A stretch of DNA of 64,000 bases from NCBI GenBank assembly GCA_963733035.1, contig CAVTBU010000006.1:480001-544000 (forward strand). Direction: 5' to 3'. Below the pieces are notes generated by a model. The model did no database searches. It saw only the letters and a list, made by a program, of their open reading frames with translations, and was not told the origin of the DNA. Positions 5,801 through 30,100 of the stretch are shown here, in pieces (position 1 is the first letter of the stretch; each line of letters starts with the position of its first letter). The DNA is from Pirellulales bacterium. Lineage in GTDB: Bacteria > Planctomycetota > Planctomycetia > Pirellulales > PALSA-1355. The position numbers were made by a program, and so were the translations under genes.

Positions 5801-6428
5801 TAGGGTCATTGTTGTGATAGAGATTCGAATTGACGTTCTGATTTACGTTGTTGATTGAAACGGGAGTTGTCGTACCCGGAATCAGCGCGATATTGGCACC
5901 ATCGAGAAAGAAACCGAATACGTCGTTGAAGGGGGAATCAACAAATTCGTTGTACTCTTCGGAACCGAAGACATACTGGACACTGATCGACCCGCCGAGC
6001 GCCACGAAATCGAACTCCAGCACCGACGCGTCATTTGTGCTGTATCCCGGAATGAGTCCGTCAAGTTGAGGATCGCCGGGTGTTCCAAAGCTGGTAGTCG
6101 TGCCATCGCTATCATTGGGTCCCGCGGCGTCGGCGATCGTGCCGCTGCTTAGCATCACGCCCGACTCGATGCCCAGGCCCTCGGATTCTCCGCCCGTGAA
6201 TTTGCCCGCCGACGCGAAATCACCGGTGAACTGGACATCGGTGACGTCGACTCCACCGCCAACCAACTCCTGTACTAGATCCTGTGGCGTCAGCCCCATG
6301 TTCAGGTTGGTGGTCGATAGAGCGAGCATTCGCCGAAATTCCAGGGGTTCCGCACCCAAGCGGCGCCCGCAGGGCGGTGTATTCCGAGCTTGCCTTGCGA
6401 ATTTCGCTCGCCTGGTGAAGCGTGCCAT
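2835..6428 (-). CDS. Large secreted/surface protein: planctomycete leader motif, choice-of-anchor L-like head, DUF11, 2x Calx-beta, 2x golvesin/CBM-like, choice-of-anchor D-like Ig domain, dockerin-like C-terminus
   Basis: AEPLEFRRML leader; YVFGSEEYNEFVDSPFNDVFGFF and D..LDSWVFL (choice-of-anchor L); DSPDPV..NNGPDPAT (DUF11); Calx-beta-type repeats; dockerin-like pair DVNNDGRVSTGD / DVSGDGRITTSD. Start placed at ATG 6428. Confidence 0.8.
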   Translation of the reverse strand: MARFTRRAKFARQARNTPPCGRRLGAEPLEFRRMLALSTTNLNMGLTPQDLVQELVGGGVDVTDVQFTGDFASAGKFTGGESEGLGIESGVMLSSGTIADAAGPNDSDGTTTSFGTPGDPQLDGLIPGYSTNDASVLEFDFVALGGSISVQYVFGSEEYNEFVDSPFNDVFGFFLDGANIALIPGTTTPVSINNVNQNVNSNLYHNNDPSDLGTPTPFLTQADGFTVVLTATADITPGPHHIKLAVADAGDTALDSWVFLQAESFISGDTDMQIAMSDSPDPVIVNNQLTYSLVATNNGPDPATSVKVEDMLPAGVTFLSASSSQGTVSQDGGVVTADLGILTAGSSATITIVAVPTQLGLVSNTATITAAQNETFPDNNSATVVTSVETAKITLNDVQVVEGDDGTKDAVFNLSLNGAEHNFAITVNYITSDVTAHAGPDYAARSGVFTFAPGATHGTIAVPIVGDKLNEVTETFLLTLSNAQHADIVRGVATGTIVDNDPLPNFYVDDVQVTTTLAGNRIATFTVALDWPSGRDVSVAYATNDGTARAGIEYQGVSGVLNFASGVRTQQIVIPVMTSDSYSANKKFYLQLSNAFNAGLIDPVGDCTIVYAAEPLGEETIDNGAAGYSANSGWYTLTNTLAHQLDYDYHAAGDGSGVATWTFASLPAGNYQVFTRWIPFLNRATNAPFTIYDGNTPLATIPVNQQLAPTGDISNGITWQSLGTFTVTGNTLRVRLSDNANGYVIADAVRIVKDGIAPQVPEMDVSALDRSIDTGDNTPDYDDSTQFGQAPLYTDSITHTFTIQNNGNTTLHLTGSPRVTMTGVAGGDFQVVTQPASTVAPGKATTFQIVFHPTAVGVRTATVSIANDDDSEHPYTFAVEGTGNGESAGQVIIDNGDASFAQVGSWTSSADAAAFHGNMLTSTAGAAGTYARWMFSGLSPGNYFVYTTWASSDSLATNAPFTVSDGIGNNTTLLVNQQIEPGLLISGRRWASVGAVNVSAGMITVDLKNEGSAPVAADAMMILREGAVPEAGPLAHNAALPQDVNNDGRVSTGDLLVLVNRLLQSASPLTATNQVSTGQYYLDVSGDGRITTSDLLMVVNYILNQSAAPQAAVAEPAATIDNSFVLFDDMGDTSTWQGVPSLDTLSVKDETPPSSKASAVPPTPAGVEAAFDDDDTSSSEDELVDLDLDLDALTVEV

Positions 6429-10501: not shown

Positions 10502-11794
10502 ATGGCGACACTCCCGTCGGTTTTCCGCCTGCGACAAAAATTCGACGCGCCGCGGGTCGAGGACATTTCCGGGGAAGTTGCGCGCCAACTTGCGGGGTTG
10601 CGGCTCCAGGACACAATTCGTCCGGAACAAAGTGTCGCTATCACGGCGGGTAGCCGAGGGATCGCCAATATTCGAGTGATCACCAAGGCGGTTGTCGACC
10701 ATATGAAGCGTTTGGGCGCCAAGCCTTTCATCGTACCGGCCATGGGAAGTCACGGAGGCGGAACGGCCGAGGGTCAGCGGCAGGTGCTCAACTCGTACGG
10801 CATCACCGAGGACTATTGCGGCTGTCCGATTCGTTCGAGCATGGAGACGGTTGTTGTCTGCCAGACCGCCGAGGGGTTTGATGTCCATTTCGACCGTCAC
10901 GCCTTCGAGGCTGATCACGTGCTGGTTTGCAACCGCATCAAGCCCCATACCGGCTTCGTCGGGGATATCGAAAGTGGCTTAATGAAAATGATGCTCATCG
11001 GGCTGGGCAAGCACGAGGGGGCAAAAATCTATCATCGCGCGATTCAAGATCATAGCTTCGGCCAAATCGTTCGTAGCGTTGCGGGGCGGGTGCTTGAGTC
11101 GTGCCGAGTGGCTGGTGGCCTGGCGATCGTCGAGAACCCCTACGATCAAACGGCGCATCTGGAGGCCGTCGCGCCGGCGAATTTCGAAACTCGCGAGAAG
11201 GAACTGCTGGTGATGGCCAAAAGGTTGCTGCCGCGATTGCCGTTTGAGCAGATCGATTTGCTGATCATCGACGAGATTGGCAAAAACATCAGTGGCACTG
11301 GCATGGACACGAACGTCGTCGGCCGCAAGTTTCACGAACATCGCGCCGCCAAGAACGAGTTTCCCAAGATCAAACGTATCATGGTGCGCGGCTTGACTGA
11401 GGCGACGCACGGCAACGCGTCGGGTATCGGACTCGTCGAGTTTGTCACCAGTCGGGCACTCGCGCAAACGGACATGCGGAAGACGCGGATCAATTGCATC
11501 ACGGCTGGGCACGTTTCCGCGGCCATGATTCCGATCGACCTGCCGACCGACCGCGAAACGATCGAAACCGCCCTTACGACACTAGGCTTGGTGTCGCCCG
11601 CGGAGACGAAGATAATTTGGATTCGCAATACGCTGGACTTGGGCGAGGTGGAATGTTCCCAGGTCTATCTCGACGAAGCCCGCGAGCGCGAAGACTTGGA
11701 GATCCTCACGCCGCTTCGTGCGATGCCGTTCGATGCCGCCGGGAACCTACCGGACGACGGCGTGCAAGCCTTCGCGAACCTTGGTTCCCGTTAG
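10502..11794 (+). CDS. Lactate racemase (LarA) N-terminal-like / DUF362-DUF2088 family protein
   Basis: Motifs VAITAGSRGIAN, PAMGSHGG, NRIKPHT, ESGLMKM..IGLGKH and GKNISGTGMDTNVVGR match this conserved family. Confidence 0.7.
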   Translation: MATLPSVFRLRQKFDAPRVEDISGEVARQLAGLRLQDTIRPEQSVAITAGSRGIANIRVITKAVVDHMKRLGAKPFIVPAMGSHGGGTAEGQRQVLNSYGITEDYCGCPIRSSMETVVVCQTAEGFDVHFDRHAFEADHVLVCNRIKPHTGFVGDIESGLMKMMLIGLGKHEGAKIYHRAIQDHSFGQIVRSVAGRVLESCRVAGGLAIVENPYDQTAHLEAVAPANFETREKELLVMAKRLLPRLPFEQIDLLIIDEIGKNISGTGMDTNVVGRKFHEHRAAKNEFPKIKRIMVRGLTEATHGNASGIGLVEFVTSRALAQTDMRKTRINCITAGHVSAAMIPIDLPTDRETIETALTTLGLVSPAETKIIWIRNTLDLGEVECSQVYLDEAREREDLEILTPLRAMPFDAAGNLPDDGVQAFANLGSR

Positions 11795-14700
11795 TCGCCG
11801 ATATCAGGTTCCTTACGAGCTTTGATCGTGCGCTGCTTCGCTTTGAGCAGGCGGGCAGTGTAGCCTTCTTCTTCGACCTGCGGCGCTAGACCTTGGCCGT
11901 GCGTGGACTTGAGCGTGCGGGGTTCCGTGGCGACGGCCACTGCTTCTCCGCTAAGTTCGGACGCGCCCTCTGTTTCTGGCTCGAACCGCGCGGCAGCGCG
12001 GCGATCTTCGAGTTGTTGATCGATTTCGGCCTTGCGGGTCTGCAGGCGTTCGAGCGAGCGCGGTTCTTCGATGGCTTGCTGCCGGCGTGTCAAATACTGA
12101 CCGATCCGGCGGAACGTGGCCGGCAACCAGGCAAAGCTAACGATCACTCTGCGGTTGAACACGTCGAACAAAAACAGGCAGCCGGCTGCAAGCGCTAGTA
12201 AATGCCAGCTATCCTGGCGGCTAGTGGCCTGCTGCAGATCGTGACGAAAGACGTTGGTCGCCAGCGCCCTATCAAGATCTTCGCCGGCTTGTCGTTCCTC
12301 CAGCACCTCTCCTGGTTTTCCGCCCCTGGGCGTGAGCGAAGCCAGGTTGCGGAGCATCTGCGGATTGCTCTGGCGATCGTTAAACTCGGCCGAATAGGGT
12401 ACGTTGACTCCCGCCCGCACGGGCGCCTGATTCGGACCCGCGACGATCGAGAGAAAGTAGCTACCCGGCTGGGTTGCCGGCACACGGGTTACGTATCGTC
12501 CCGGGGCGGTCTGTTCGAGCTTCAAATCGACCGCGTCGATATGCGGGCCGAGTAGCGTACCGCCGAGGTCGAGAAAATTGAGGAACTGATCGTCCTTGTC
12601 GAGTGCCGTCACGACGATCTGAATCTGGCCATCCTGCACTTCGGCAAAGACGTCGAGGGAGCCTTGCTTGTCCGTCGGCCGCATCGTCCAGCGAACCATT
12701 TGCGTAAAGAATTGCTCGTAACCAGACCACTCCGGCCAGGTCTTGGTCCAGCGCTGCCCGGCATCGGTGGTGAACGCCACGGCTCGCCCCAGTCCGTATT
12801 GCCAAGTTGCCAGCAACGAATTCTGATTGCCAGACGGCCGCGGCGACACGATGGGGATCTCGACCAACGGGCTGTCCTTGGGACTGGTCATCACGAACCC
12901 GGTCATGGGCGGCAGCGTCCCTTCGATGCCGTCCAGAATCTCGTGACTTGCCACGCGCTGCGGCGAAATACCTTGAACGTCTTCAAAAATCACCGGCCGT
13001 GCGACCCGCATCGCTTCTTTCATAAAGATGCGGGGAATCGTTCGCGGGTTGTCGACCAGGTAGTATTTTCCGCCGCCCGTGCGGGCAATGTCGTTGAGCA
13101 ATTGGACCGCCGCATCCGCTCCGACTGCCACGGTGCTCGTGGTGATCTTTTGCTGACGGGCGACCTGGGCCATATAGGTGAAATTGCTGCCATGCGTTTG
13201 GCCGTCGGTGAGCACAATCATGTGCTTCACGGCGGCGTCCACCTTCCGCAAAGCCATGTAACCTTGAGCCATGCCCGGTTCCATGTCTGTGCCGCCACCG
13301 GATTCGAGTCGGGCAATGCGGCGAAAAATCGTCTCCGCGTTGTTGATCTTCGTCGTCGGCACAATCCAGTGCGCCGCCGAATCGAATGACACGACTCCCA
13401 CCGAATCGTCATGGCCCAACACCCGCACGGCCGCAATAGCGGCCGCTTTGCTTAGCTCGAGCTTCTCGCCAGACATCGAGCCGGAGCTGTCGATCACCAG
13501 CATCAAGGCTCCGCTTGGCACCACCTTGGCGTTCTTCACTTGGAAGTTGACCGGCATGGCCTCTTCGAGTGCCGTGTTGGTCCAGCCGCCGGCACCGAAA
13601 CTGTCGGGTCCACCCAGCACCAATAGCCCGCTCCCCATATGCTGGGTGTTTTGCGCCAGTATTTCGATTTGTTCGTCGCTGAAGGTAACGAGCTGGTCCG
13701 CGGCGTCACCCGTTGTGCGGGCTACGTCGCCTAGGATTACCAGGTCGAAGCGTTGCAACTCGGCCAGACTCGTGAACAGCCGGTTGCTCGGCTGGACGAC
13801 GACCTCCAGCTGGTGCCGACCGAACAGCTCGACAAGTTCACGGAACTTGCCTGGCTTGGCGAAATCTTCGATCAACAGCACTTGTCCGCGACCTCGAACG
13901 TGTGTGAACGCCGTGGCCTCATTGTTCTCGACGAGCGAGTCGCCCTTCGGGTCGTCGGGTACAAACCGTGCCGAGTAAGTGTAAAAGTCCGGTCGGGCAA
14001 TTTCTTCCTGAAACGAAAGCACCTGTTTGCCGGGGGCAAGCGTTACTGGGCGATCTGCGAGCGTCTGGGTTTGGCCGCTTGCCGTTCGGCTGATACGGAG
14101 GCGTCCGTTGACCGCTGTCGCTTCAGCGTCTCCAGAGTTGTTGTTGAGGACAACGCGGGCTTCGAAAGGTGTGCCCTGGCGAATGTCTTGCGGCAGCGCG
14201 ATCTTTTCGACCGACACTTCGCGCTGTCCCCCACGTTCCAACGGAAGGACATCGATCCCGATTCCCAGTTCAGCAAGTTGTTGAGCCTGCGCTTGGGCAT
14301 CGCCGAGGTTCTCGTTGCCGTCACTAATGATCACCACGCGTTTGGCCGCGTCGGCGGGAAACACCGCTTGAGCCAAACGCAAGGCGGCAGCCAGATTCGT
14401 GGCCTCACCGTCAACATCGCTTTCGAATCGGGCCGGTAAATGCCTACTGCCGGCCAGCGGCGGCGATTCGACTGCGGCTTCACGTCCAAAGACGATTACT
14501 CCGGCACGGTCCTCATGCTTGCGGTCTGACTGCGATTCGGTGGCGCGTTGAATGTATTGAACAACTTGGCTTGCCGTGTCGGCGGGTATGCTGGCCGATC
14601 GATCCACGACATAGAGCACGGCCACGCGATCGCTCGTTCGCACAAGTTGGATTTCGGCCAACGCCGCCACTAGCAGCAATACCAGCACCGTTCGCACGCC

Positions 14701-14829
14701 TAGCGCCGTCCAGCGCCGCCACGCGCCAAGTCCAGCGAGACTATGTCGACCGATCCACCACAAGACCGGCAGCACAGCCAGCAAGAGCAGATAGGAAGGC
14801 CGATCAAAAGCGAGTCGATAATCGAGCAT
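11791..14829 (-). CDS. Membrane-anchored VWA domain protein with a glutamine amidotransferase-like domain
   Basis: BatA-like N-terminal TM pair; two MIDAS motifs (VDRSAS, IDSSGS); GGPDSFGAGGW GATase1-like segment; C-terminal TM. Start placed at ATG 14829 to avoid overlap. Confidence 0.8.
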   Translation of the reverse strand: MLDYRLAFDRPSYLLLLAVLPVLWWIGRHSLAGLGAWRRWTALGVRTVLVLLLVAALAEIQLVRTSDRVAVLYVVDRSASIPADTASQVVQYIQRATESQSDRKHEDRAGVIVFGREAAVESPPLAGSRHLPARFESDVDGEATNLAAALRLAQAVFPADAAKRVVIISDGNENLGDAQAQAQQLAELGIGIDVLPLERGGQREVSVEKIALPQDIRQGTPFEARVVLNNNSGDAEATAVNGRLRISRTASGQTQTLADRPVTLAPGKQVLSFQEEIARPDFYTYSARFVPDDPKGDSLVENNEATAFTHVRGRGQVLLIEDFAKPGKFRELVELFGRHQLEVVVQPSNRLFTSLAELQRFDLVILGDVARTTGDAADQLVTFSDEQIEILAQNTQHMGSGLLVLGGPDSFGAGGWTNTALEEAMPVNFQVKNAKVVPSGALMLVIDSSGSMSGEKLELSKAAAIAAVRVLGHDDSVGVVSFDSAAHWIVPTTKINNAETIFRRIARLESGGGTDMEPGMAQGYMALRKVDAAVKHMIVLTDGQTHGSNFTYMAQVARQQKITTSTVAVGADAAVQLLNDIARTGGGKYYLVDNPRTIPRIFMKEAMRVARPVIFEDVQGISPQRVASHEILDGIEGTLPPMTGFVMTSPKDSPLVEIPIVSPRPSGNQNSLLATWQYGLGRAVAFTTDAGQRWTKTWPEWSGYEQFFTQMVRWTMRPTDKQGSLDVFAEVQDGQIQIVVTALDKDDQFLNFLDLGGTLLGPHIDAVDLKLEQTAPGRYVTRVPATQPGSYFLSIVAGPNQAPVRAGVNVPYSAEFNDRQSNPQMLRNLASLTPRGGKPGEVLEERQAGEDLDRALATNVFRHDLQQATSRQDSWHLLALAAGCLFLFDVFNRRVIVSFAWLPATFRRIGQYLTRRQQAIEEPRSLERLQTRKAEIDQQLEDRRAAARFEPETEGASELSGEAVAVATEPRTLKSTHGQGLAPQVEEEGYTARLLKAKQRTIKARKEPDIGD

Positions 14830-14906
14830 CGCGGCCACTCGCGAGGATTCCGGGGCCACTGGACGACCTGCCAATGCGGCAAGTTCACAATCTCGATTGT
14901 ATCCGA

Positions 14907-17147
14907 CTAGAGGTGGAAGTTGAACGTGCGCATCAGCCACCGCCACGCCCGTTTTCCCAGCGGTTGCCATTCGGCCGAGACGCGCGCCGTGCCGCTTAAA
15001 CCTTGCACGAGGGCCCCCGTGTCGTCGTCAATTTCGGCCCGGGCCTGATACGACGTGTTAATGGGGCGTTCGACACCCGTGGAATCCTGCTTGCTCATCA
15101 GGCTACCGCCGGATTTGCTGGACATTTGTCGGCTGGTAAATTCCATTTCGGGGCCAATCTCGACTAGGGTTGAGTCAAATGTGCGATTTGGGAGCGATTC
15201 GAATTTGATTTTGACTTCTTGGCCCTCATGGATGAACTCAATCTCGTCCTGATCGATTACGATATTCGCTTCCCACTTGGTGGGATCGCCGATTTGGCAA
15301 TAGAGCGCGGGCGGTTCGAGGAAAGCCCCCACATTCGACTGCTCCAGTGGGCTGCCGCTCCAAGTTGGCAGCTGTTTATCGCCTGGGTCAGGACGCTTCG
15401 CGACCGACGGCGGTGGCAGCACGGTACCCGACACCGGCGCGATCAGCTTCAAACGCTCCCGATCTTCGAGCCGTTGCGAGAGCAGCTTTTCCGAGGCGTC
15501 GAGAGCCTTCTCAAGTGCCGGTAGCGTCAGGCTGGCTGTCGCGTTCGAAACTTCGAACTGTTCGTGCTTGAGCACTTCCAGGTGAATTCGGTCTTGAGCC
15601 ACATTGGACTGCAACTCGTTGATCTCTAATTCCAGTGGAATGCTGTTCAGTTGCGCCAGTTCCTGGTCCTTGACGACTTTCTGGCCGGATTTCACATCGA
15701 TTTTTTCCAGGAGTCCCGGCACTTGCACGTATACCGCCTCGGCGTCACGCGGCTTGAGTTCCAGCGGGCACATCACTCGGTACGGCAGGGGGACGAACAT
15801 GATCAAGGCGGCCACGACCGCCAGAATGCTTAGCGTGGCGTAGACATTCTTGCGTTTCACTTTGTGAAGCCTTCCGGGAACGTAGAAGAACTTACCGACC
15901 TTATAGATAGGTACGACCACCAGACTGCCCATCGAGACGACCGCCAGCATCTGGCTCAGAATCTTCAAATCGTACGGCTCGAGTACCTTGTACAGAAAAA
16001 ACAAAATGCCAAACAGCACGAGCCATTTGTAGATCGAGGCCGCCACCGTATAGAGTGCGAAGAACACCTGGTTCCGTTGCGGGAGAAACGGATCCTCAGG
16101 CTCCTCCAGTCCCAGGCACCAGGCGCCCAGCTTGCGGTTGAGAATCTGGCTGGCCTTTTGCCGCAGATTTGGGATTTCCGTGAGGTCCGACAGGATGTAA
16201 TAGCCGTCGTACCGCAGCAGCGGATTCGCATTGAAAATGAGAGTACTCACCGAGCAGACGAACATCGTGCTCAGCGCCAACTGATGGAGCATGCCCGGTG
16301 TACTGAACCACCACAGATACGTGCAGATCGACGCGATCACGATTTCGAAGTACATTCCCGCGGCACCGATGGCCGCACGATGCCACTTGTTGGGCAACAT
16401 CCAAGAGTCCGAGACGTTGCAATACAAGCAGGGCGTGAGCACCAGCAGCATGACGCCCATTTCATGGCATTCGCCGCCAAAATGCTTGCAGCTCAGGCCA
16501 TGACCAAATTCGTGAATCACCTTGGTTACGGCCAACGTCACGCCCAAATAGATCCAGTTCTTGGCTTCGAAAAACTGGTGGAACGTCGGTAGCTTTTGTT
16601 GGAACGTATCGAACTGCACCAGTACCAACAACAATGCCGAGAGTGCGAATAGCAAACAACAAACTAACGCCGTCCTGGTGAAGAACCAGAGCATCTTTGG
16701 GTGGAGCCAGTTGAGAATACGTTCGGGGTCGATGCCTTTGAAACGCATCGCCAGAACGTTGCTGGCCGCACCGGCAAATTCTTTCCACTTGCGCTCGGTG
16801 TTCCGCTTGCGGAGCTGTTTGCCCTGGCCAGGCACATTGGCGATGACCAGCCCGCTGCGATGCAGCATGCCCACGAACTGGCCCAGTTCCTCGACTGTGA
16901 TCTTTTGCGGTGGAAAGCGGCGTTCGAATTCGACCTTGATTTCATCGAGGCTCGTTTCACCGTCAAGCATCTGCAAGATCGCGTACTCTTCTTCCTGGAA
17001 ACGGAAGTACTTCAGGCCCACGGGCTCCTTGATCACCCAATAAACCTGACCCAGGTAGCGATGCTGCGCCGCAGATAGGTCCGGGCGCATCCGCAGTTTC
17101 ATCGCCCGCGCGGAACTGGAAACGAGACTATCGGCCAAACTGACCAT
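14907..17147 (-). CDS. PqqD/RRE-like domain + M50 (site-2) zinc metallopeptidase + HlyD-type membrane fusion protein
   Basis: HEFGH (HExxH) and NANPLLRYDGY (NxxPxxxxDG) within TM segments; N-terminal winged-helix-like segment (YFRFQEEEYAILQMLDGETSL...LHRSGLV); C-terminal lipoyl halves flanking a coiled coil. Confidence 0.85.
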   Translation of the reverse strand: MVSLADSLVSSSARAMKLRMRPDLSAAQHRYLGQVYWVIKEPVGLKYFRFQEEEYAILQMLDGETSLDEIKVEFERRFPPQKITVEELGQFVGMLHRSGLVIANVPGQGKQLRKRNTERKWKEFAGAASNVLAMRFKGIDPERILNWLHPKMLWFFTRTALVCCLLFALSALLLVLVQFDTFQQKLPTFHQFFEAKNWIYLGVTLAVTKVIHEFGHGLSCKHFGGECHEMGVMLLVLTPCLYCNVSDSWMLPNKWHRAAIGAAGMYFEIVIASICTYLWWFSTPGMLHQLALSTMFVCSVSTLIFNANPLLRYDGYYILSDLTEIPNLRQKASQILNRKLGAWCLGLEEPEDPFLPQRNQVFFALYTVAASIYKWLVLFGILFFLYKVLEPYDLKILSQMLAVVSMGSLVVVPIYKVGKFFYVPGRLHKVKRKNVYATLSILAVVAALIMFVPLPYRVMCPLELKPRDAEAVYVQVPGLLEKIDVKSGQKVVKDQELAQLNSIPLELEINELQSNVAQDRIHLEVLKHEQFEVSNATASLTLPALEKALDASEKLLSQRLEDRERLKLIAPVSGTVLPPPSVAKRPDPGDKQLPTWSGSPLEQSNVGAFLEPPALYCQIGDPTKWEANIVIDQDEIEFIHEGQEVKIKFESLPNRTFDSTLVEIGPEMEFTSRQMSSKSGGSLMSKQDSTGVERPINTSYQARAEIDDDTGALVQGLSGTARVSAEWQPLGKRAWRWLMRTFNFHL

Positions 17148-17197
17148 GTTCGACTCAACGGGTGCAAAGCTTCAGGGTGCCGTCGAATACGAGGGCT

Positions 17198-18130
17198 CTA
17201 GTTACGTTGCCCACGCGATGCAGCGGGATGAACCGGTGCCTTCCGTGGCGTGGCCGCAACCGGCCGGCTGACGTGGATCGTCATCGACGCTTTGAGGCCG
17301 GCACGAACCACGGGCAAATCGTTCTCCATCGTCGCGTCGATCTCCGCATAGACCGGCAGGTGTCCAAGCGTCACGACGGGGCTCACGTAGGTTACCGTGC
17401 CGGGAACCTTAATTGCGCGGCCGCGAGGAAGTTGCACTTCCACCGTCACGTCGCGACCCGCGATGTCTGTCGGGCCCCACTGACTGGCGTCTAGATTGCC
17501 CATTACGCGAAGCCGCTTGATGCCGACCACTTGCACTACAGGTTCGCCTGAGGCCACCCACTCTCCTGGCTTCTTGATGACGCTTGTGATTACCCCGTCA
17601 AACGGGGCGCGCAAGATCCGCCGGTCGAGCGCCACCTGGGCGGCGCCCACTTCGGCTTTCTTGGCCTTTGCGGTCAACTGGTTTTCGATTTGCTCTTCCA
17701 TCGTCTGCTCGGTTGCCAACTCAGCTTTCTTGAGTTCGAGCTTCGATTTCAATATGTCGATGTGGCTTACCGTGCCGGGAGCGCGGCGGTTGGCTTCCTC
17801 ATATTGTCTAAGTGCGGCCTGGGCCACGTCGGCCGCTGCTTTGGCGTGGCGGATGTTGATGTCGCTGTTGGCCTTTTGAGTCGCCGCTTCATATTCGAGT
17901 TGTTTGACGTCCAGGTTGGCTCGGGCCTCGCTCTCATCGATCAGCCCGAGTTCCATCCCGCGCGTGACCTGCATGCCTTCGGAAGCTTTGAGATGCGTAA
18001 GCACTCCGGCGTCGGCTCCGGGGACGTATTGATCGTCGATCGAGGCGATGACACAGTCTTGGATTTGTGGATCGGTGGTTCCGGTCGGATCGGCGGTCAC
18101 CGCCAACATGAGTAGAATCGACGCGAGCAT
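17198..18130 (-). CDS. HlyD/RND-type periplasmic adaptor subunit with signal peptide
   Basis: Hydrophobic N-terminus, lipoyl half-motifs (LRAPFDGVI..KPGEWV..GEPVVQV) and a coiled coil. Confidence 0.85.
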   Translation of the reverse strand: MLASILLMLAVTADPTGTTDPQIQDCVIASIDDQYVPGADAGVLTHLKASEGMQVTRGMELGLIDESEARANLDVKQLEYEAATQKANSDINIRHAKAAADVAQAALRQYEEANRRAPGTVSHIDILKSKLELKKAELATEQTMEEQIENQLTAKAKKAEVGAAQVALDRRILRAPFDGVITSVIKKPGEWVASGEPVVQVVGIKRLRVMGNLDASQWGPTDIAGRDVTVEVQLPRGRAIKVPGTVTYVSPVVTLGHLPVYAEIDATMENDLPVVRAGLKASMTIHVSRPVAATPRKAPVHPAASRGQRN

Positions 18131-18192
18131 GGGATACCTCTCCCTTTCGGTTTTCCCGGAGCGGCGACCGGCTGGTCACCACGCCGCCAAGA

Positions 18193-20211
18193 CTAGAAAA
18201 GTCGGAACAGAATCTTCAATTGCACGAACGTGATCAGGTCATGGAACCACACGTAGCCGAGCGAAGCGCGACCGCAATGGACTTGCGCGGTCACTTCCGC
18301 GCCATCACGGCGAATGGGTACGTCTTGCTTGTTGATGGCCACTCGAATCAGCACCGTGTTTCCCTCTTCGCCGCGGACTTCCGCGCTTTCATGAACTTCT
18401 TTTACCGTGCCTTCGAGCGTGACTCCCGGCTTGGCCTTGGCGGTGTAACTTACCTTCAGTTCGGGACTCAGTTCGGCTTGGGCTTCGGCAATGTAACCCA
18501 TGTCGTTTTCGGGCATTTGCAATTCCAGTTCCCAATCGCCCTGCGGCTCGATCACCGTTAAGAGCTGTTGCCCGGTTTGCACCGGTCGCCGCATCAGCAG
18601 GTCGCGCAGTTTCCAGGTCGCCACCTGGCCGTCCACCGGACTGGTGATGATCAGCTGTTTCTGTTGCTGCTCGAGCAACTTCACCTGTTCTTCGATACTT
18701 CGCACTTGCGAAGCCAAGGCAGCTTGCTTGCCCGCCAGTTCGAAGAAATCATCTTGCCGCGACTTGGTTGGGTGTGCGATTTGCTCATTGACACCTGCCA
18801 GCTGGTCGACCGTTTCCGCCAGTTTGCCGCGGGCCTCGGTGATGTCTCGTTGCAGTTCGCTGTTTTCCAACTCGGCGAGCGGCTGGCCGGCCTCGACCAT
18901 GTCGCCGTGGTCCACAAAGACTTTGACGACGCGGCCGTCGACTTCGGCGAAAACTTGCTTGCGGACAACGGGTTGCAATTTGCCATTGGCAGTCAACTTA
19001 AAGTCGGCTGGCCAGATGAACAGGAAGGCCACGACCACGGCAAGCGCAATGGCCGCGGACGCCGTCCATGGCAATTGCCGGGCTTCGACCAGCCACCGCG
19101 ACTTGCCAATTGCTCGCCAGACGGGCATCAGGAACAAATCGTTGTGTTCCAGTACGTTTGTCAAGGAAAGCGCACTGTGCTCGCTGACGATTTCGATTCG
19201 TTGCGCCAGGCCGTCGCGCGGCCGGCTATCTTCAATCTGCTCGATGATCAGCGCGCCGATGACCCGTGGCGTTGCCATCGGGTCGGTCTTGTCGTGCGGT
19301 TCCTTCAGCGGCACGATCGCCACGGCTTTCGAATGCACTTCGTCGACGTATTCCTGCACGGCCTCCTCGACCTGCGGAGCCATCATCGAAGTGTCGCCCG
19401 TGTACCACACGGTTTCGCCTGTTGCCACCACGCTCTTGGCGAGCCGCGTGAGCAGGGTGATCGTGTTTGATCGCTTGTCAAACGTGTCCTGTCCGCTGAC
19501 GGCCTCGATTTTGGTCTTGCGGCCCCGCGTGATGGCCACACTTACGCGGTCGCATTCGATCAGCCGGCGGCCCTCGTTGGCGATCGTATAGGCTGTTTCG
19601 CGGGGTTCGAGCCCCTGGTGCACGAGCCGGGTGAATTGTTCGAGCTGCGCCCACAGCGCCTGTCGGTCGGTGAAGTGCTGCAACTTTCGCGACTTCAAAT
19701 ACTCACTGGCCAGGTCGCACATCTGCTGCAGGAACCGCAGATAACCACGCTGCACGGTCACGCTGCTGCCGGGGCGTTGGAAGACCTCCATCACACCGGC
19801 CGTTTCGTTGGCTGTCTTCAGAGGCCCGAGGACCAGCAGGTAATCGGTTGGATTCGCTCCGTCTTCCGGGCTTCCGCCGCCGGAGTGCGGAGCCATCAGC
19901 ATCCCTTCGCCGCTGGCGATCACCTTTCTCAAGAGACGACCGTGCTTAACCTGATCGTCTTCGCTCTCGGCCAGCCGAGTCTCGCGGAGGTTGATTTGGT
20001 ATTCGAGCGAAAGTTGCCCGGTCTCGGTCACCGTCCAGACGGCGCCGCCGACTGCCGCCAGAGCCGTCACGACACGGTTGAGCACGGCATCGTAAAACTC
20101 TTGTGGAGAGACATCGCTCTTGGCAATCTGGGCAATTTCGCGCACCAGATTGCGAATCTGCTGCTTTGTCTGTTCGACGAGCTCAGGATCGACGGATTGT
20201 TCGGTGCTCAT
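18193..20211 (-). CDS. GAF-domain-containing HlyD family membrane fusion protein
   Basis: N-terminal GAF-like regions (LIECDRVSVAI, AIVPL...IGALIIE), one TM (AAIALAVVVAFLFIWP), then AEVDGRV..V.HGD.V..GQ.L and SPVDGQV adaptor motifs. Confidence 0.85.
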   Translation of the reverse strand: MSTEQSVDPELVEQTKQQIRNLVREIAQIAKSDVSPQEFYDAVLNRVVTALAAVGGAVWTVTETGQLSLEYQINLRETRLAESEDDQVKHGRLLRKVIASGEGMLMAPHSGGGSPEDGANPTDYLLVLGPLKTANETAGVMEVFQRPGSSVTVQRGYLRFLQQMCDLASEYLKSRKLQHFTDRQALWAQLEQFTRLVHQGLEPRETAYTIANEGRRLIECDRVSVAITRGRKTKIEAVSGQDTFDKRSNTITLLTRLAKSVVATGETVWYTGDTSMMAPQVEEAVQEYVDEVHSKAVAIVPLKEPHDKTDPMATPRVIGALIIEQIEDSRPRDGLAQRIEIVSEHSALSLTNVLEHNDLFLMPVWRAIGKSRWLVEARQLPWTASAAIALAVVVAFLFIWPADFKLTANGKLQPVVRKQVFAEVDGRVVKVFVDHGDMVEAGQPLAELENSELQRDITEARGKLAETVDQLAGVNEQIAHPTKSRQDDFFELAGKQAALASQVRSIEEQVKLLEQQQKQLIITSPVDGQVATWKLRDLLMRRPVQTGQQLLTVIEPQGDWELELQMPENDMGYIAEAQAELSPELKVSYTAKAKPGVTLEGTVKEVHESAEVRGEEGNTVLIRVAINKQDVPIRRDGAEVTAQVHCGRASLGYVWFHDLITFVQLKILFRLF

Positions 20212-20451
20212 GCGGGCTCAGAAGGGGCAAATGATGGCATTGCGACGCCGATTCGGCGGAAATTCCCAAGAAGGTCTGCCGCGAGACGGCCGTTCGGCGA
20301 CCTATCTTTTAAACCTAGCTTGTGTTACGTCATTTCGAGTGAGTTCGTTCACGGCCAGACCCAGTCGGGCATGGGCCGGCGAGGAGGCCCCACGGTGCCG
20401 AAAGTACAACCAACGAAAAGGCAATTGTCGTAGCACCCCAACGCAATCGTC

Positions 20452-20628
20452 TCGGTACGGGGACGACAAGAGCCACCTTGGACGACGTGTTATTCAGGGG
20501 CTCCGCCTCTGGTGTAGCTCCCAGCGGCTCCTCTGGTACTGTTCCGCTGCGGTCGGTGTGGCACAACCCCTGGAGGGCACATTCCTGAACAGGTTTGACC
20601 GCTTTATCCCTCTTGTTACCTTCGCCGA
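20452..20628. ncRNA. Putative structured non-coding RNA (rod with central bubble; 6S-like or cis-regulatory leader)
   Basis: Nested complementarity: 20452-55/20625-28, 20458-62/20620-24, 20465-72/20610-17, ~20x20-nt bubble, 20493-98/20584-89, 20501-04/20572-75, 20522-27/20544-49. Folded by eye only; strand uncertain. Confidence 0.3.
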
Positions 20629-20867
20629 AGCGTGCGGAGGGTATTGCACCATTCTTCTTTAGTTGAGCAGGTGGTAGGGCTTTGATCAAGACCGACTCGC
20701 CCGTTCGACACAGGCAAACGAGCTGAAAACTGACGGTTCTCGCGGATTTGCCGGTTCCGGCGGCCCCTCGAAGCCGCCGTCCGAGTCAAAACAGCACGAC
20801 GCCCGGGCGTCGGCTTGCTACACTGGGGCCGATTCCCCTTGACGCCAGTTTCTGGCAGATCCTCTCG

Positions 20868-21545
20868 ATGCGCATCCTGCTTACGCACCACGCCCCCCTC
20901 CAGCAGTCGCCAGCGGGCAAGCTGGTGTCGCAATGGGCTAGTGCCCTTCAAGCTCTTGGAAATGACGTTCGCTTGCTAGTGGCCGACAATCAGCATCGTT
21001 TCGGCGAGTTCCTCCCGACCGAACGAGTCGTGTGCGGCAGCGATCCCAACGCCGACTTGCTGTTCGGATTGCCGCGATTTACCGACGAGGACGGCTCGAG
21101 TGGGCGTCCTACCTTCGCCGAACTCTCCGATGCCCAACTCGTACGCTATCGCGACTGCTTGCGCCGCCGGTTGGACAACCAGATCATGCATTTCGATCCG
21201 CACGTGATTCACGTGCAACACATCTGGATTCTGGGGCAGCTTGCGCTCGAAAGTGGCGTTCCCTATGTACTCAATGCCTGGAACGCGGAATTGAACGATT
21301 TCGAATTGGATCCTCGCTATCAACCGCTGGCCGAGCAGGCCGCTGAGAATGCCAGCCGAATCCTCGTGGGTGACGAAGCGACGAGACTGCGGGTGAAAAC
21401 GCGGTTCGAAACCGCGGCCGACCGCATCGTCGTGTTGTCGGTGCCCGGTCCGTTTGAGCAAGGCCTGGATTACGTGTCCCCGGTGGACATCGGTGACCAA
21501 CTTCAAAATCTGTACCAAACGCTACTCACCGAGCGATTTGGCTAG
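20868..21545 (+). CDS. Glycosyltransferase family 4 N-terminal-domain-only protein
   Basis: MRILLTHHAPL start, LQALGNDVRLL and FDPHVIHVQHIW match the GT4 N-terminal domain; no C-terminal donor-binding domain (225 aa). Confidence 0.6.
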   Translation: MRILLTHHAPLQQSPAGKLVSQWASALQALGNDVRLLVADNQHRFGEFLPTERVVCGSDPNADLLFGLPRFTDEDGSSGRPTFAELSDAQLVRYRDCLRRRLDNQIMHFDPHVIHVQHIWILGQLALESGVPYVLNAWNAELNDFELDPRYQPLAEQAAENASRILVGDEATRLRVKTRFETAADRIVVLSVPGPFEQGLDYVSPVDIGDQLQNLYQTLLTERFG

Positions 21546-26957: not shown

Positions 26958-26993
26958 AACGGCACCGGTCCCAGTTGGACCGGTGCCGTTTTT
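26958..26993 (+). terminator. Rho-independent terminator
   Basis: Perfect 14-bp stem AACGGCACCGGTCC-CAGTT-GGACCGGTGCCGTT ending in a T5 run. Confidence 0.85.
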
Positions 26994-27172
26994 CGTGGCT
27001 TGCCAGGCACGTTTTACTTGCTGTTTTTGCCGTATTTTGCTTGTTGCGGGGCCGAAACCGCGTAACTAGTATGAAGTGGCCTCGATCCGTAGTGCTATTC
27101 TGTTCGACCACATCCGATTGGTCCGCAGATGGTCAAGCGCCATATTCCCCTCCAGAGCAATTACCACATAAC

Positions 27173-30100
27173 ATGTTTGATCCAGTGCATCGGCGATCAA
27201 CACGAAAGTCCGGTACTCATGCGCAGCGTAGCACCCAAGCCGCGAAGTTTCACCCCGGTCTTGAACCGCTAGAAGACCGGCGGATGCTTCATTTTGACGG
27301 CTACCAACAGGCGCTTGTTGCGTTCGAAGGTGACGACCTGGTCGGTAAGGACGGGCCAATGTCCCGAGTTGGCTTTGACCTGACGCTGATGTTCGAACAG
27401 TACAAGATTCAGACCAGCCTCGACCCAGGAGCCGCGTTTGTACCGTCGGGCGGGCTGCCGGTCGAAATCTCAGGGAATTCTATCAATATCGATCTGGTAG
27501 GTTCCGGCGATGCCAACGCCTTTCGGAATCAGTTGACGTCGCTGGGAATGACGAACATTGTTTCGTTTGGTTCGCTCGTCAGTGGAAGCATTCCGCTGGG
27601 TAACTTGGATCAATTGGCCGGCTTGAACACGCTCCTCTTTGCGAGACCAACCTATCTGCCTATTACGTCGGCCGGTTTGACAACAAGTCAAGCCGATTCG
27701 GCGCTACACGCCGACGAGGCTAGATCCCTGTTTGGAGTGGATGGCAGCGGAATCACCGTTGGCGTGATCTCCGACAGTTTCGATTCCGTACCTTATGCGG
27801 GCGGTGTCGACGGAGTGACAAAGGATATTCAAACGGGCGACTTGCCGCAGGACACGCAAGTCCTTCAGGACTTCGTGTCTCCGTTTTCCACAGATGAAGG
27901 CCGTGCCATGGCGCAGCTGATTCATGACCTTGCTCCCGGTGCCGCGATTCGATTCGCAACCGCCGACGTGAATGGTCAAGTTGGCTTTGCCCAAAATATC
28001 TTGGCTCTGGCAAATGCGGGAGCCAACGTCATCACGGATGACATCAGTTACTTTGCCGAACCGTTCTTTCAGGATGGGGTCATCGCGCAGGCCGCCCAGC
28101 AAGTAGTTGCCCAGGGCGTTTCCTACTTTTCGTCTGCGGGTAACGAAGAGGCTAGGTCGTATGAGAGTGCTTTCGTCGATTCCGGGCAGACGCTGGCAAA
28201 CGGCGCCAAACTGCACGATTTCGACCCTGGCCCGGGTGTCTCGACACTTCAAGAAATCAAACTGCCAGTGGGCGACGCAGTTCAAATGAGTTTTCAGTGG
28301 GATCAGCCCTTCGCTTCGCTCGGCGGTGCAGGTTCGCAGAGCGACTTAGACATTTCCCTCATTGGTGCCGACGGGACGACTGTAGTTGCCAGTTCGATAG
28401 ACCAGAATATCGGTGGTGATCCGATTGAGTTCCTGCAGGCTCTCAACGACGGCAGCATAGACCTCGACAACGACGGGCAGCCTGACACCAAATTCTACAT
28501 TCAGATTTCGCTCGTTTCCGGACCTGCACCGGGTCTGATGAAGTACGTTGACTTTGGTCGCTCGTCGACAATCGTTTCTTTTGCGACCGATAGCAGCACC
28601 GACGTGGGACATCACAATACCGCGGGCGTCATCGGAGTTGCGGCAACGGCCTTTTACGGTACGCCTCAGTTTGGCATCACGCCGCCCGTGCTCGACTATT
28701 ATTCATCCAAGGGCGGAACGTCGATCTTATTTGACACCAGTGGTCAGAGGTTGACGACGCCGTTCAATCCGAACTCTCCGCAGTTGACCGGGGTCGACGG
28801 AACAAACACGACCTTCTTCGGAAGTGATATCTCCCAGGACGCAGATTCGTTTCCCAACTTTTTCGGAACGTCGGCGGCAGCACCTCATTTGGCTGCTGTC
28901 GCAGCATTGATGATCGAGTTGACCGGGGGGCCCGGGAGCGTCGCGCCAGACGACATCTACAATGCGCTGGAAGAAACTGCGATAGACATCGTAAATCGCT
29001 CGGATGGCACGGTCTTGATACCGATTGTCAATGGCCAGGGTTTCGACCTATACAGCGGCTATGGACTTGTCGACGCCGTGGCGGCATTGCAATCGATAAA
29101 CTCCCGCGTCTCGCTTGGCGACGACGTCGCAATGCTCGAAGGCGATAGTGGCATTACGAATTTCGTCTTTGCGGTCAACTATATGGGAACGGCTGTCAGC
29201 CCAGTCACGGTAGCCTATACAACCTTGGACGGTACCGCGGTGGCCGGTGCCGACTACCTTTCTAACAGTGGAACGCTTACGTTTTCCGTTGGTGGGGCCA
29301 CGACGCAATGGATCACGATTGGTGTCGTCGCGGACCAGGTTGTGGAGTCAAATGAAACGTTTTTGGTAAAACTCAGCAGTCCCGAGAACGCGGTGCTGGG
29401 TCGAAGCCAGGCCGTGGGCACAATACTGAACGACGACATCGACTTGTCGATTAACGATGTCGCTCTGGTCGAGGGTCACAACGGACTTAGGGATGCGGTT
29501 TTTACCGTTTCGACCTACGGGGTTGTAAATCAAGTCATATCCGTTAGTTATACGACGGTAAACAATACCGCACAGGGTGCCAGCGATTACTTGCCAACCG
29601 CCGGTGTGGTAACACTCAATGCCCAAACACCCACGGCGTTGGTTACCGTACCTGTCGTCGGTGATATTGTGGACGAGGACGACGAGACATTCTTCGTCGT
29701 GTTGACGAGTTCGCATGGTGCGCGAATTGCCGACGGCACGGGAGTGGGCACGATCATTGATGACGATCAATCGCCTGCGCTCTATGTGAACGACGTGCAA
29801 GTGACGACGACGGCCTCCGGGACGTTTGCGGCAATGTTTACGGTTGGGCTCGATGCCGTCAGCGGTCGCGCGGTGACGGCCAATTTTGCCACGTCTGACG
29901 TCAGCGCCCACAGCGGTGTGGACTATTCCGGGCTGGTTGGCGTATTGACCTTCAATCCGGGCGTGCGCACGCAAACCGTGGTGGTTCCCATCATGACCGC
30001 CGCGGTGTACTCGGCCGACAAGACGTTTCATCTGAACCTCACGAGTGCTCAGAATGCCTTGATGGCCGATCCGCAGGGGACGGCCACGATCGTGTTTGCC

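Follow-up and report, generated by a model that had tools for sequence, protein, structure and literature searches.

The window analysed here, a 64,000-nt stretch of Pirellulales DNA, contains three adjacent genes that each encode an HlyD-type domain. An earlier note, made from the sequence alone, had described three co-oriented HlyD-like ORFs at this site, and this was confirmed, with all three on the minus strand at exactly the coordinates it gave and separated by intergenic gaps of 62 and 50 nt. The host of this trio is a soil planctomycete. The features of the locus, in window positions, are as follows.

18193-20211, minus strand: P0001, GAF-GAF-TM-HlyD protein, 672 aa (ORF)
17198-18130, minus strand: P0002, small HlyD-type adaptor, 310 aa (ORF)
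14907-17147, minus strand: P0003, RRE/PqqD-like, M50 and HlyD fusion protein, 746 aa (ORF, family matches)
16833-17147, minus strand: RRE/PqqD-like domain, P0003 residues 1-105 (AlphaFold, Foldseek)
15783-16700, minus strand: M50 membrane protease core, P0003 residues about 150-455 (PF02163, NF041824)
16500-16514, minus strand: HExxH of the M50 core (motif)
16203-16232, minus strand: NxxPxxxxDG of the M50 core (motif)
14907-15761, minus strand: periplasmic HlyD-type domain, P0003 residues 463-746 (HlyD_D23, HlyD_3, RND_mfp)
11791-14970, minus strand: VWA/GATase1-like membrane protein, downstream of the M50 gene (Pfam)

A scan of 25 ORFs from window position 37 to 37695 detected no ABC, RND or OEP protein, and none of the genome's OEP matches falls inside the window. 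The VWA/GATase1-like ORF shares 64 nt with the end of the M50 gene; such a gene lies downstream of the trio in just 10 of 80 related loci, and BatA and GATase1-like genes were found upstream in a few other trio loci. It is doubtful that this protein is part of the system.

P0001 contains two GAF domains (GAF_3, residues 35-170; GAF, residues 203-332), a single TM segment detected by hydropathy scan (residues 384-402), and a region matching Biotin_lipoyl_2, HlyD_3 and HlyD_D23 (residues 419-632; Pfam/NCBIfam). Its predicted topology places the GAF pair in the cytoplasm and the HlyD-type adaptor in the periplasm. Residues 220-639 are similar to a 618-aa adaptor of a Pontibrevibacter cluster (25% identity, E 3e-12). 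P0002 matches HlyD_3 (E 2.9e-15) and RND_mfp (E 1.9e-19) in Pfam/NCBIfam, and its short, hydrophobic N-terminus is plausibly a signal peptide. P0001 is present in 71 and P0002 in 73 of the 80 related loci.

P0003 scores 30.2 bits for Peptidase_M50 (PF02163), above the 27.2-bit cut-off, and has six to seven TM segments between residues 159 and 453 by hydropathy scan. Its best named family is daptide_HExxH (NF041824; E 8.5e-53, residues 33-390), at a score of 179.8 that is under the family cut-off of 300, with YydH/LiaK next. The residues H212, E213 and H216 of HExxH, together with N306, N308, P309, D314 and G315, are invariant across 60 diverse homologues, in agreement with the M50 domain with HExxH/NPxxxxDG motifs that had been read from the sequence. 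That reading had also included a winged-helix-like, RRE/PqqD-like N-terminal head. Assignment of this head to PqqD from sequence alone is weak: the match to TIGR03859 (E 7.5e-4, residues 48-98) scores 19.3 bits where the cut-off is 46, the window's own domain has no Pfam PqqD match at E<=0.01, and a PDB profile search ranks calbindin (E 0.014) above PqqD (0.021). Pfam PqqD is matched by 16 of 40 homologous N-terminal domains. At the level of fold, the proposal held. In its AlphaFold model (pLDDT 89.6, pTM 0.79) the head folds as an RRE, and the top Foldseek matches are TbiB1 with leader (5v1v_A, E 8.5e-4), PqqD (5sxy) and TfuB1 with leader (6jx3_B), the first and last being lasso-peptide RREs with bound leader peptides.

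The arrangement of the trio is non-random. The whole trio is contained in 71 of the 80 related loci, the other 9 ending at a contig edge upstream of the M50 gene, and its order and orientation are identical in all 71 loci with sufficient upstream DNA. The M50-HlyD fusion gene occurs in 78 of the 81 genomes sampled from the order, at 42-79% identity, and in 31 of the 121 sampled from the phylum; among representative proteins, P0003 has 13404 matches at E<=1e-3, of which 4518 reach E<=1e-30.

The trio genes of other Planctomycetota and of Alphaproteobacteria adjoin genes for a shortened SecA, DUF3467, TolC and giant 'LEPR-XLL' proteins. In all eight annotated proteobacterial loci, a neighbouring gene encodes a giant or large repeat protein, two of these proteins being named LEPR-XLL, and adjacent genes encode TolC in five, DUF3467 in five and a short SecA in four. 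Of 30 positive Planctomycetota genomes, 14 have a SecA-like gene no more than 5 kb from the M50 gene, and one locus carries the full set (DUF3467, HlyD, M50-HlyD, OEP, SecA, HlyD; L134). DUF3467 itself was detected in 19/30 M50-positive and 4/90 M50-negative genomes in one sample, and the large proteins adjoining the trio bear an N-terminal LExR leader in 7 of 38 loci. We also observed a second layout, composed of TolC, two adaptors and M50-HlyD, without SecA or DUF3467, in Azospirillum (two loci), Magnetospirillum and three planctomycete loci (L139, L143 and L149). Given this SecA-free layout, and given that a short SecA is absent from about 11 of the 30 M50-positive genomes among the matches listed, the motor is not universal. 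Among Pirellulales, no neighbour of the trio is common to more than 13 of 62 loci, and in the window, as in most loci of the order, the genes next to it do not encode a client, SecA, DUF3467 or TolC.

The genome that carries the window does encode such partners elsewhere. Its short SecA gene is on another contig, unlinked to the trio, and is orthologous to trio-linked ones; in a phylogenetic tree it falls among trio-linked short SecAs, and 10 long SecAs form a separate clade (support 97). The short SecAs are about 650-680 aa in length, compared to 868-1352 aa for the long ones in the tree, and so lack the C-terminal part. A DUF3467 gene sits directly upstream of one encoding a leader protein of 2406 aa, and a second, paralogous trio neighbours a divergent OEP and a PKD protein with a leader, a layout intact in five of five same-family relatives. 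The statement in the earlier note that the trio has no ATPase or TolC is correct locally but does not extend to the rest of the genome, where a shortened SecA, DUF3467 and TolC are all encoded. Judging from gene content, the trio is not self-sufficient, and a shortened SecA, DUF3467 and TolC belong to its gene set in relatives.

About 42 proteins encoded in the genome carry the leader [FL]ExLExRx[LM]L, and two of these are within the window.

2835-6428, minus strand: candidate client 1, 1197 aa, Calx-beta/DUF11/Golvesin_C/dockerin (Pfam, leader motif)
6288-6425, minus strand: client 1 N-terminal leader ...GAEPLEFRRMLALS (leader profile E 2.8e-14)
27173-31441, plus strand: candidate client 2, 1422 aa, Calx-beta/Golvesin_C/dockerin (Pfam, leader motif)
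27188-27325, plus strand: client 2 N-terminal leader ...GLEPLEDRRMLHF (leader profile E 8.3e-12)

The start of client 2 is probably the ATG at 27173, within an ORF spanning 26975-31441. The N-terminal leader motif has 45 matches in the genome, compared to 3-8 in shuffled sequences and 5 for the reversed motif, and a leader profile has 40. Applied to other genomes, this profile, which is overfitted to the source genome, matched 7/30 M50-positive and 6/90 M50-negative genomes at E<=0.01. The tag, a basic stretch followed by [FL]ExLExRx[LM]L, is the planctomycete 'RRLxxExLExRxLLA' signal, named LEPR-XLL by NCBI; the NCBI LEPR-8K model has no match in the source genome or in control genomes. The clients of the trio are likely to be large proteins with an N-terminal LExRxLL leader and not RiPP-type peptides.

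We propose, with a probability of roughly 0.55, that the trio forms the core, in the inner membrane and periplasm, of a machine for export and leader cleavage that acts on large leader-tagged proteins rather than small peptides. The cytoplasmic RRE head would bind the acidic and hydrophobic leader of an unfolded client, the shortened SecA, encoded elsewhere, would provide an ATP-driven push, perhaps with DUF3467 as a holder, and the M50 core would remove the leader at the membrane. The three distinct HlyD-type domains may form a mixed periplasmic sleeve that docks to a TolC-like channel, so that the client would exit in a single step, as type I secretion substrates do, and the GAF domains could either control the machine or provide a docking site for the motor. 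The earlier note had put forward the M50 protein as a possible inner-membrane channel, with a hetero-oligomeric adaptor that the GAF domains might gate. Against the proposal, M50 proteases are not known to conduct proteins. In Pirellulales, where the genes of the system are scattered and leader proteins number dozens per genome, it looks like a general pathway and not a one-cargo cassette. The machine is widespread and, if this proposal is true, handles large surface proteins bearing a long-unexplained N-terminal tag.

It is unlikely that export instead proceeds in two steps, with clients crossing via SecYEG with help from the short SecA, the RRE-M50 protein serving as leader peptidase only, and the adaptors passing periplasmic intermediates to TolC or anchoring the protease. 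M50 enzymes are established as proteases, not channels, the short SecA retains SecA_DEAD as well as the preprotein cross-linking and second P-loop domains, and the SecA-free layout would suit use of the housekeeping Sec system. However, the LExR leaders examined, including those of both window clients, lack the hydrophobic core seen in Sec and Tat signals, the short SecA is without the C-terminal part, which in SecA probably carries SecY-engaging elements, and three conserved adaptors with TolC are typical of one-step conduits.

A role in signalling or envelope quality control appears rather improbable. Here, the site-2-type protease would cut a membrane or cytoplasmic regulator in response to a signal that the GAF domains sense, with the adaptors as periplasmic scaffolds and the adjacency of surface-protein genes reflecting their regulation. 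Sigma and anti-sigma factor genes are not recurrent beside the trio, its recurrent partners are transport parts (TolC, SecA-like proteins and adaptors), and the RRE head suggests recognition of a peptide tag borne by dozens of the genome's proteins, all of which argue against this role, even though regulated intramembrane proteolysis is the classical function of site-2 proteases, GAF domains are sensory, and in the M. extorquens operon the GAF gene alone was expressed in exponential phase (PMC4452313).

Adaptors normally require a pump, and those of the trio might serve an ordinary unlinked ABC, RND or MFS pump, with the M50 fusion incidental to transport. In one locus (L118), the M50 gene does adjoin a full RND pump that has an adaptor of its own. 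Among 111 neighbour ORFs at 28 phylum loci, however, we found just two ABC_tran and two ACR_tran matches, one of the former being a gene on the opposite strand and the other part of an importer that also has a binding protein and a permease. No ABC or RND exporter adjoins the trio in any of the eight annotated proteobacterial loci, and the 2015 survey (PMC4452313) reported no such pump. This explanation is very unlikely, and no dedicated ABC or RND exporter recurs beside the trio across 8 proteobacterial, 62 Pirellulales and 28 phylum loci.

The reading nearest to that of the earlier note, in which the leader of a short RiPP-type precursor would be bound by the RRE and cut by the M50 domain and the small peptide exported, fits the best named match to a daptide leader peptidase, followed by YydH/LiaK, and an RRE fold so far known from RiPP pathways, but is highly improbable, as the locus has no conserved precursor gene or modifying enzyme: the 62- and 50-nt gaps cannot hold a precursor gene, the sole upstream ORF (119 aa, 20330-20689) is unmatched in the 80 related loci, modifying enzymes are not recurrent among neighbours, the NF041824 score is under its cut-off, and presence in 78/81 genomes at 42-79% identity is unlike a variable natural-product cluster.

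The gene module itself has already been published, computationally, in 2015 (PMC4452313), in a study that matches the T1SS-related clusters near secondary SecA_DEAD proteins mentioned in the earlier note. That study describes Peptidase_M50/HlyD, HlyD/biotin-lipoyl and GAF/HlyD proteins in taxa including Planctomycetes and Proteobacteria. Its authors proposed that the SecA_DEAD protein acts as the ATPase and that the M50 protein might form a pore in the membrane; they identify no client and describe the biological function as entirely unknown. None of the terms PqqD, DUF3467, giant, leader or Studholme occurs in the main text, and we found no published description of the RRE domain or a cargo link for the module. 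The window trio resembles the published module in its three protein types, the lack of an ABC transporter and an OEP that is sometimes adjacent, but differs in that its SecA-like gene is unlinked, on another contig.

Several better-known systems share parts of this design. Type I secretion (HlyBD-TolC and exporters of giant RTX adhesins) is similar in its HlyD-type adaptors, in TolC, here found in relatives, and in large, repetitive surface-type clients encoded beside the machine. In contrast, the trio has no ABC transporter and three different adaptors rather than one, its presumed signal sits at the N-terminus and is probably removed rather than being C-terminal and uncleaved, and the system includes a SecA-like ATPase and a membrane metalloprotease. 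MpaP (NF041824; Ren et al. 2023), a daptide RRE-site-2-protease, likewise joins an N-terminal RRE to an M50 intramembrane protease and is reported to cut a leader with the motif ELExMEAP (10.1101/2023.03.08.531785), whose acidic/hydrophobic alternation is similar to that of ExLExR. P0003 differs in its additional C-terminal adaptor domain, in having no daptide genes or short precursors nearby, and in presumed substrates of 400 to >4000 aa. PCAT exporters with an accessory adaptor also couple leader recognition and cleavage to export, but employ a C39 cysteine peptidase rather than an M50 metalloprotease, and no ABC domains were found near the window trio, with just the two stray ABC_tran matches noted above at the phylum loci. 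Finally, the accessory SecA2 of Gram-positive bacteria is similarly a second SecA paralogue devoted to a subset of large surface proteins, and the cluster-linked short SecA has matches to SecA2 models of NCBIfam; the short SecAs here are, however, truncated and form groups of their own apart from long SecAs, and their partners, in diderm bacteria, are adaptors, an M50 protease and TolC rather than SecY2 or glycosylation genes.

The source genome, that of a planctomycete (6.65 Mb in 10 contigs, 92% complete), carries in the window three co-oriented genes separated by intergenic gaps of 62 and 50 nt. ORF and Pfam/NCBIfam analysis upheld the earlier note's description of this trio.

18193-20211, minus strand: P0001, 672 aa; two GAF domains, one transmembrane (TM) helix at residues 384-402, and an HlyD-type adaptor with biotin-lipoyl domain (Pfam/NCBIfam, hydropathy)
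17198-18130, minus strand: P0002, 310 aa; small HlyD-type adaptor with a short hydrophobic N-terminus (Pfam/NCBIfam)
14907-17147, minus strand: P0003, 746 aa; PqqD-like head, M50 core and HlyD-type tail (Pfam/NCBIfam)

The M50 core of P0003 scored 30.2 bits against PF02163 (cut-off 27.2), and HlyD_D23 and HlyD_3 were matched in the same protein (Pfam). A hydropathy scan gave six or seven hydrophobic segments within residues 159-453, and H212, E213, H216, N306, N308, P309, D314 and G315 were invariant in 60 homologues (35-59% identity). P0003 therefore has the features of an M50 site-2 protease, with HExxH and NxxPxxxxDG inside a multi-TM core. Just past HExxH (window 16400-16490), C220, C227, H228, E229 and C243 are each present in at least 90% of the 60 homologues; this cluster might bind a second metal or form a structural disulfide, and we know of no such feature in classical site-2 proteases.

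The N-terminal domain is the best conserved part of P0003 within the order (62-94% identity, versus 48-81% over the full length). A model based on an alignment of 40 sequences (pLDDT 89.6, pTM 0.79) predicted a small sheet (strands 25-31, 34-41 and 46-51, P0003 numbering) followed by three helices (52-60, 67-77 and 85-98), that is, the three-stranded sheet and three helices of the RRE/PqqD fold. When this model was compared with the PDB by Foldseek, the best match was TbiB1 with bound leader peptide (5v1v_A, E 8.5e-4, TM-score 0.74 on the target), followed by PqqD (5sxy) and then TfuB1 with bound leader (6jx3_B), all three with a probability of 1.00; further matches included the RRE-bearing enzymes TigE, ThcOx, TruD and LynD-type heterocyclases. 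At the level of the modelled fold, the earlier suggestion that this domain is RRE-like is thus supported, and the refuting outcome named in the earlier note, a domain unlike an RRE, did not occur. Sequence support for PqqD/RRE membership is weaker: Pfam PqqD (PF05402) matched 16 of the 40 homologous domains and did not match the window's own domain at E<=0.01, TIGR03859 (PqqD) reached E 7.5e-4 on P0003 with 19.3 bits against a cut-off of 46, and a profile search of PDB sequences ranked PqqD (E 0.02-0.03) after calbindin (0.014). To our knowledge, RRE domains have so far been known only from peptide natural-product biosynthesis.

The P0003 family is large, with 13404 representative proteins matching at E<=1e-3 and 4518 at E<=1e-30. 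The M50-HlyD fusion gene was present in 78 of 81 sampled Pirellulales genomes, frequently in 2-6 copies, and in 31 of 121 sampled Planctomycetota genomes. When 80 related Pirellulales loci were compared, the gene order GAF-HlyD, HlyD, M50-HlyD was intact in all 71 with sufficient upstream DNA, the remaining 9 ending at a contig edge. The flanks of the trio are variable (the commonest neighbour family occurred in 13 of 62 loci), and Pfam identified no recurrent transporter among 18 neighbour-family representatives. An ORF for a 1059-aa VWA/GATase1-like membrane protein (window 11791-14970) shares 64 nt with the 3' end of the M50 gene; its membership of the system is possible but doubtful, as it lies downstream in just 10 of 80 near loci. 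In some distant loci (L073, L146, L151), the trio has a BatA, GATase1-like or BatD gene next to it. A promoter/terminator scan of window 11500-21000 gave a site count not above that of shuffles.

The window trio is an ordinary member of a module published computationally in 2015. According to the available text of that study, by Kamneva, Poudel and Ward, secondary SecA_DEAD proteins occur with Peptidase_M50/HlyD, HlyD and GAF/HlyD proteins, sometimes with an outer-membrane efflux protein (OEP) and never with an ABC transporter; the authors suggested that SecA_DEAD is the ATPase and that the M50 protein might form a pore, and called the role of the module completely unknown (PMC4452313). The operon META1p2399-2402 of Methylobacterium extorquens AM1 is among the examples that the study names. 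The earlier note's statement that type I secretion-related clusters lie near secondary SecA_DEAD proteins was accurate in this respect. P0003 corresponds to the M50 and HlyD protein of the module, P0001 to its GAF/HlyD/biotin-lipoyl protein and P0002 to its further HlyD protein; a secondary, shortened SecA_DEAD is present in the genome, but unlinked to the trio. The words PqqD, DUF3467, giant, leader and Studholme do not occur in the main text of PMC4452313, and a literature search with thin coverage of subscription journals turned up neither a connection between the module and leader proteins nor a mention of the RRE head. Compared with the print found, what our sequence comparisons and models would add is the cargo link, the RRE receptor and a near-universal, multi-client pathway role in Pirellulales.

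The shortened SecA of this genome is a 668-aa protein encoded by a solitary gene on another contig (C7). We placed it by a quick maximum-likelihood search on 36 SecA-like proteins with SH-aLRT support; short and long SecAs were told apart by adjacency and by the tree, identity being unable to separate them. Ten long SecAs formed one group (SH-aLRT 97), and the genome's own short SecA was sister (support 86) to the trio-linked short SecAs of Pirellulaceae, within a clade of support 96.

Annotated plasmids and chromids were searched with the protein query; the fusion was found in Alphaproteobacteria, and eight annotated loci were inspected. Five of these (Pontibrevibacter, Methylosinus, Mesorhizobium, Pseudosulfitobacter and Thalassospira) share one layout, consisting of a giant gene, DUF3467, an adaptor of ~620 aa and the RRE-M50-HlyD fusion, followed 3' by a gene for a protein of ~650-660 aa in 4/5, a small adaptor in 3/5 and TolC in 2/5. 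The 650-660-aa protein, annotated as a helicase, a translocase or (in Methylosinus) a prepilin peptidase, scores as SecA (E 2e-175 for the Pontibrevibacter copy, yet below cut-offs), and all four copies matched the short SecA of our genome by BLASTP. Two of the giants bear the name LEPR-XLL domain protein, and that of Pontibrevibacter is matched by NCBIfam NF012209. The other three loci (two in Azospirillum, one in Magnetospirillum) have a second layout, comprising a large repeat protein, TolC, a small adaptor, a mid-sized adaptor and M50-HlyD, without SecA or DUF3467. This second layout is common to Alphaproteobacteria and Planctomycetota (loci L087, L156 and L157; L139, L143 and L149); its mid-sized adaptor has 430-475 aa and no long cytoplasmic part, and the large repeat proteins that it adjoins include some with LEERIVL-type leaders. 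Sequence search found no solved-structure relatives of either P0003 or DUF3467.

Within Planctomycetota, a SecA-like gene lies <=5 kb from the M50 gene in at least 14 of the 30 other positive genomes, among the matches listed, and DUF3467 tracks the M50 fusion (19/30 positive versus 4/90 negative phylum genomes, relatives not being independent). We fetched 38 loci and labelled their ORFs by BLAST, with a crude ORF caller that left some loci mislabelled. One of the 38 has DUF3467, HlyD, M50-HlyD, OEP, SecA and HlyD in a row, other loci show the SecA-less layout, and in 7 of the 38 the adjacent large protein has a basic N-terminus followed by LExR[IVL]xL. Five Pirellulaceae-type loci have a gene for a 661-678-aa SecA-like protein immediately 5' of the trio. 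Ser/Thr kinase genes adjoin the gene set in three loci from two related planctomycete genomes (L141, L146, L151), two of these kinases being fused to a response-regulator receiver domain.

Leaders of this type are frequent in the genome itself. The pattern ExLExRx[LMIVF][LMIVFP] occurred 45 times at the N-terminus of long frames and 8 times elsewhere in frames, compared with 5 for the reversed pattern and 3-8 for ten shuffles. Some 42 of the 45 have a basic stretch, lie 25-45 residues from a methionine and are followed by small residues; all of 22 aligned leaders keep the two E and the R, and a profile of these 22 found 40 places in the genome. The frames range from about 230 to 4200 residues, and two candidate clients are encoded in the window:

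2835-6428, minus strand: candidate client 1, Calx-beta/dockerin protein (Pfam) with the leader motif
27173-31441, plus strand: candidate client 2, Calx-beta/dockerin protein (Pfam) with the leader motif

The ORF of the second opens at 26975, 66 codons before the likely start ATG at 27173, which is 32 residues ahead of the motif; false N-terminal extensions from automatic annotation may hide the leaders of such proteins. The leader is the motif RRLxxExLExRxLLA, which Studholme et al. 2004 put forward as a novel signal for export (as cited in PMC8567305). In Tuwongella immobilis, the available text of PMC8567305 gives 52 genes with the motif, of which proteomics detected 20, among them those of 8 of the 10 longest proteins. 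A 2026 preprint, in the part available, describes a LEPRxLL N-terminus on giant proteins of a green sulfur symbiont, with a TolC gene adjacent. A separate preprint on giant genes deals with SecA_DEAD domains that form part of giant proteins. The NCBI 24-position LEPR-8K model had no match at E<=0.1 in our genome, a result that is uninformative because control genomes had none either; the model does match the Pontibrevibacter giant. Across 121 phylum genomes, our leader profile, which is overfitted to the source genome and was scored on just 58 candidates per genome, gave no clear association, being positive in 7/30 M50-positive versus 6/90 negative genomes.

Two further loci of the genome join leader-bearing proteins to partners of the trio. 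Its sole DUF3467 gene is directly 5' of a gene for a 2406-aa leader-bearing Calx-beta protein. This pair (C5:687000-698700; L094 6278-17736) has genes for BBP7 ('putative beta-barrel porin-7') on both sides, and a few related loci (L038, L078) also have BBP7 genes close to the trio; BBP7 may be a planctomycete-specific outer-membrane partner. The other locus, on the same contig as the window (C6:65600-72400; L085 9626-17336), is a second trio ~40% identical to that of the window, with a divergent 815-aa OEP gene 5' and a gene for a PKD protein with the leader ...LELRPLEERRVLSA 3'. Two of its genes are broken here (GAF-HlyD into 311 + 277 aa, M50-HlyD into 590 + 209 aa), which reflects recent gene decay or else indels from assembly; 5/5 genomes of the family carry an unbroken set with the same OEP, and the leader-bearing downstream gene is present in 4/5. 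A kinase-WD40 giant is encoded 3' of this locus (L085 1-4614).

The earlier note had envisaged a leader-peptide-dependent export machine with neither an ABC ATPase nor TolC beside it. No ABC, RND or OEP gene was found by Pfam/NCBIfam among 25 ORFs scanned around the trio, so this local picture stands; the presumed motor and candidate outer channels are, however, encoded elsewhere in the genome, where OEP gave 21 domain matches at about 12 loci, one of them divergent to the second trio and none in the window. The arrangement differs from type I secretion in that a dedicated ABC transporter is absent beside the trio and not recurrent in relatives. A TolC-family factor, absent from the window, may be supplied by one of the OEP proteins encoded elsewhere. 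The RRE head is likewise retained, and the machine is probably leader-guided; the clients appear to be large proteins rather than small peptides.

We favor, at a probability of about 0.55, the reading that the trio is a leader-guided export and leader-cleavage core for large LExRxLL proteins. In this mechanism, suggested by sequence and modelled structure, the RRE head would bind the client leader, the M50 core would remove it, the short SecA would drive the unfolded client, the three adaptor domains would form a mixed sleeve to a TolC-type channel, and the GAF domains would regulate the machine or dock the motor. This reading is weakened by the existence of the SecA-less layout, by the lack of a clear phylum-wide association in the leader profile, and also because we know of no M50 protein that conducts proteins. 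A variant in two steps via SecYEG is unlikely; a hydropathy scan found no hydrophobic signal core in either window client. A role of the trio in signalling or quality control is less probable again. An unlinked conventional pump has slightly poorer prospects still: no cluster among the eight annotated loci contained an ABC exporter, and Pfam analysis of 111 unlabelled neighbours of 28 phylum loci found two ABC_tran proteins (one encoded on the opposite strand, the other an importer component), two ACR_tran matches, one being a complete RND pump with its own adaptor, and neither ABC_membrane nor C39 domains. The dedicated ABC or RND pump that the earlier note had named as evidence against itself is thus not recurrent in either set. 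Export of small peptides is very improbable, since the only upstream ORF (119 aa, 20330-20689), rejected as a conserved precursor, had matches in 0 of 80 related loci.

A broader form of the export-core reading, which we hold tentatively and at somewhat less than even odds, is that these genes specify a distinct envelope-spanning secretion pathway. The RRE would serve as receptor for an N-terminal signal that can be cleaved from full-length proteins, giant ones included; a truncated SecA would stand in place of the ABC motor, the M50 protein would be gatekeeper and signal peptidase, and three adaptors would lead to TolC, in a near-universal Pirellulales route for about 40 surface proteins per genome. 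The exit route of LExRxLL surface proteins, which include most of the largest planctomycete proteins, has been unexplained ever since Studholme et al. 2004 described the motif (cited in PMC8567305), and the evidence presented now connects the leader with a concrete gene set that is near-universal in the order. If correct, the pathway would account for an orphan planctomycete export signal first noted in 2004, would be a new secretion pathway made from unexpected parts that widens the role of the RRE from small peptides to whole proteins, and would be relevant to giant adhesin-like proteins of many phyla, among them those of plant-associated Alphaproteobacteria and symbiotic consortia.

By analogy, the nearest precedent for RRE-M50 leader processing is the daptide peptidase MpaP, in which, according to the part of the report available, an RRE is fused to a site-2 protease that removes a leader with ELExMEAP (10.1101/2023.03.08.531785). 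Residues 33-390 of P0003 matched the corresponding daptide-type HExxH family, NF041824, with E 8.5e-53, although at 179.8 bits against a curated cut-off of 300, and no aminotransferase, methyltransferase or precursor genes are conserved beside P0003. ELExMEAP and the planctomycete ExLExRxLL both alternate acidic and hydrophobic residues, and both accompany RRE-site-2-protease fusions; the two leaders may share one ancestral recognition mode.
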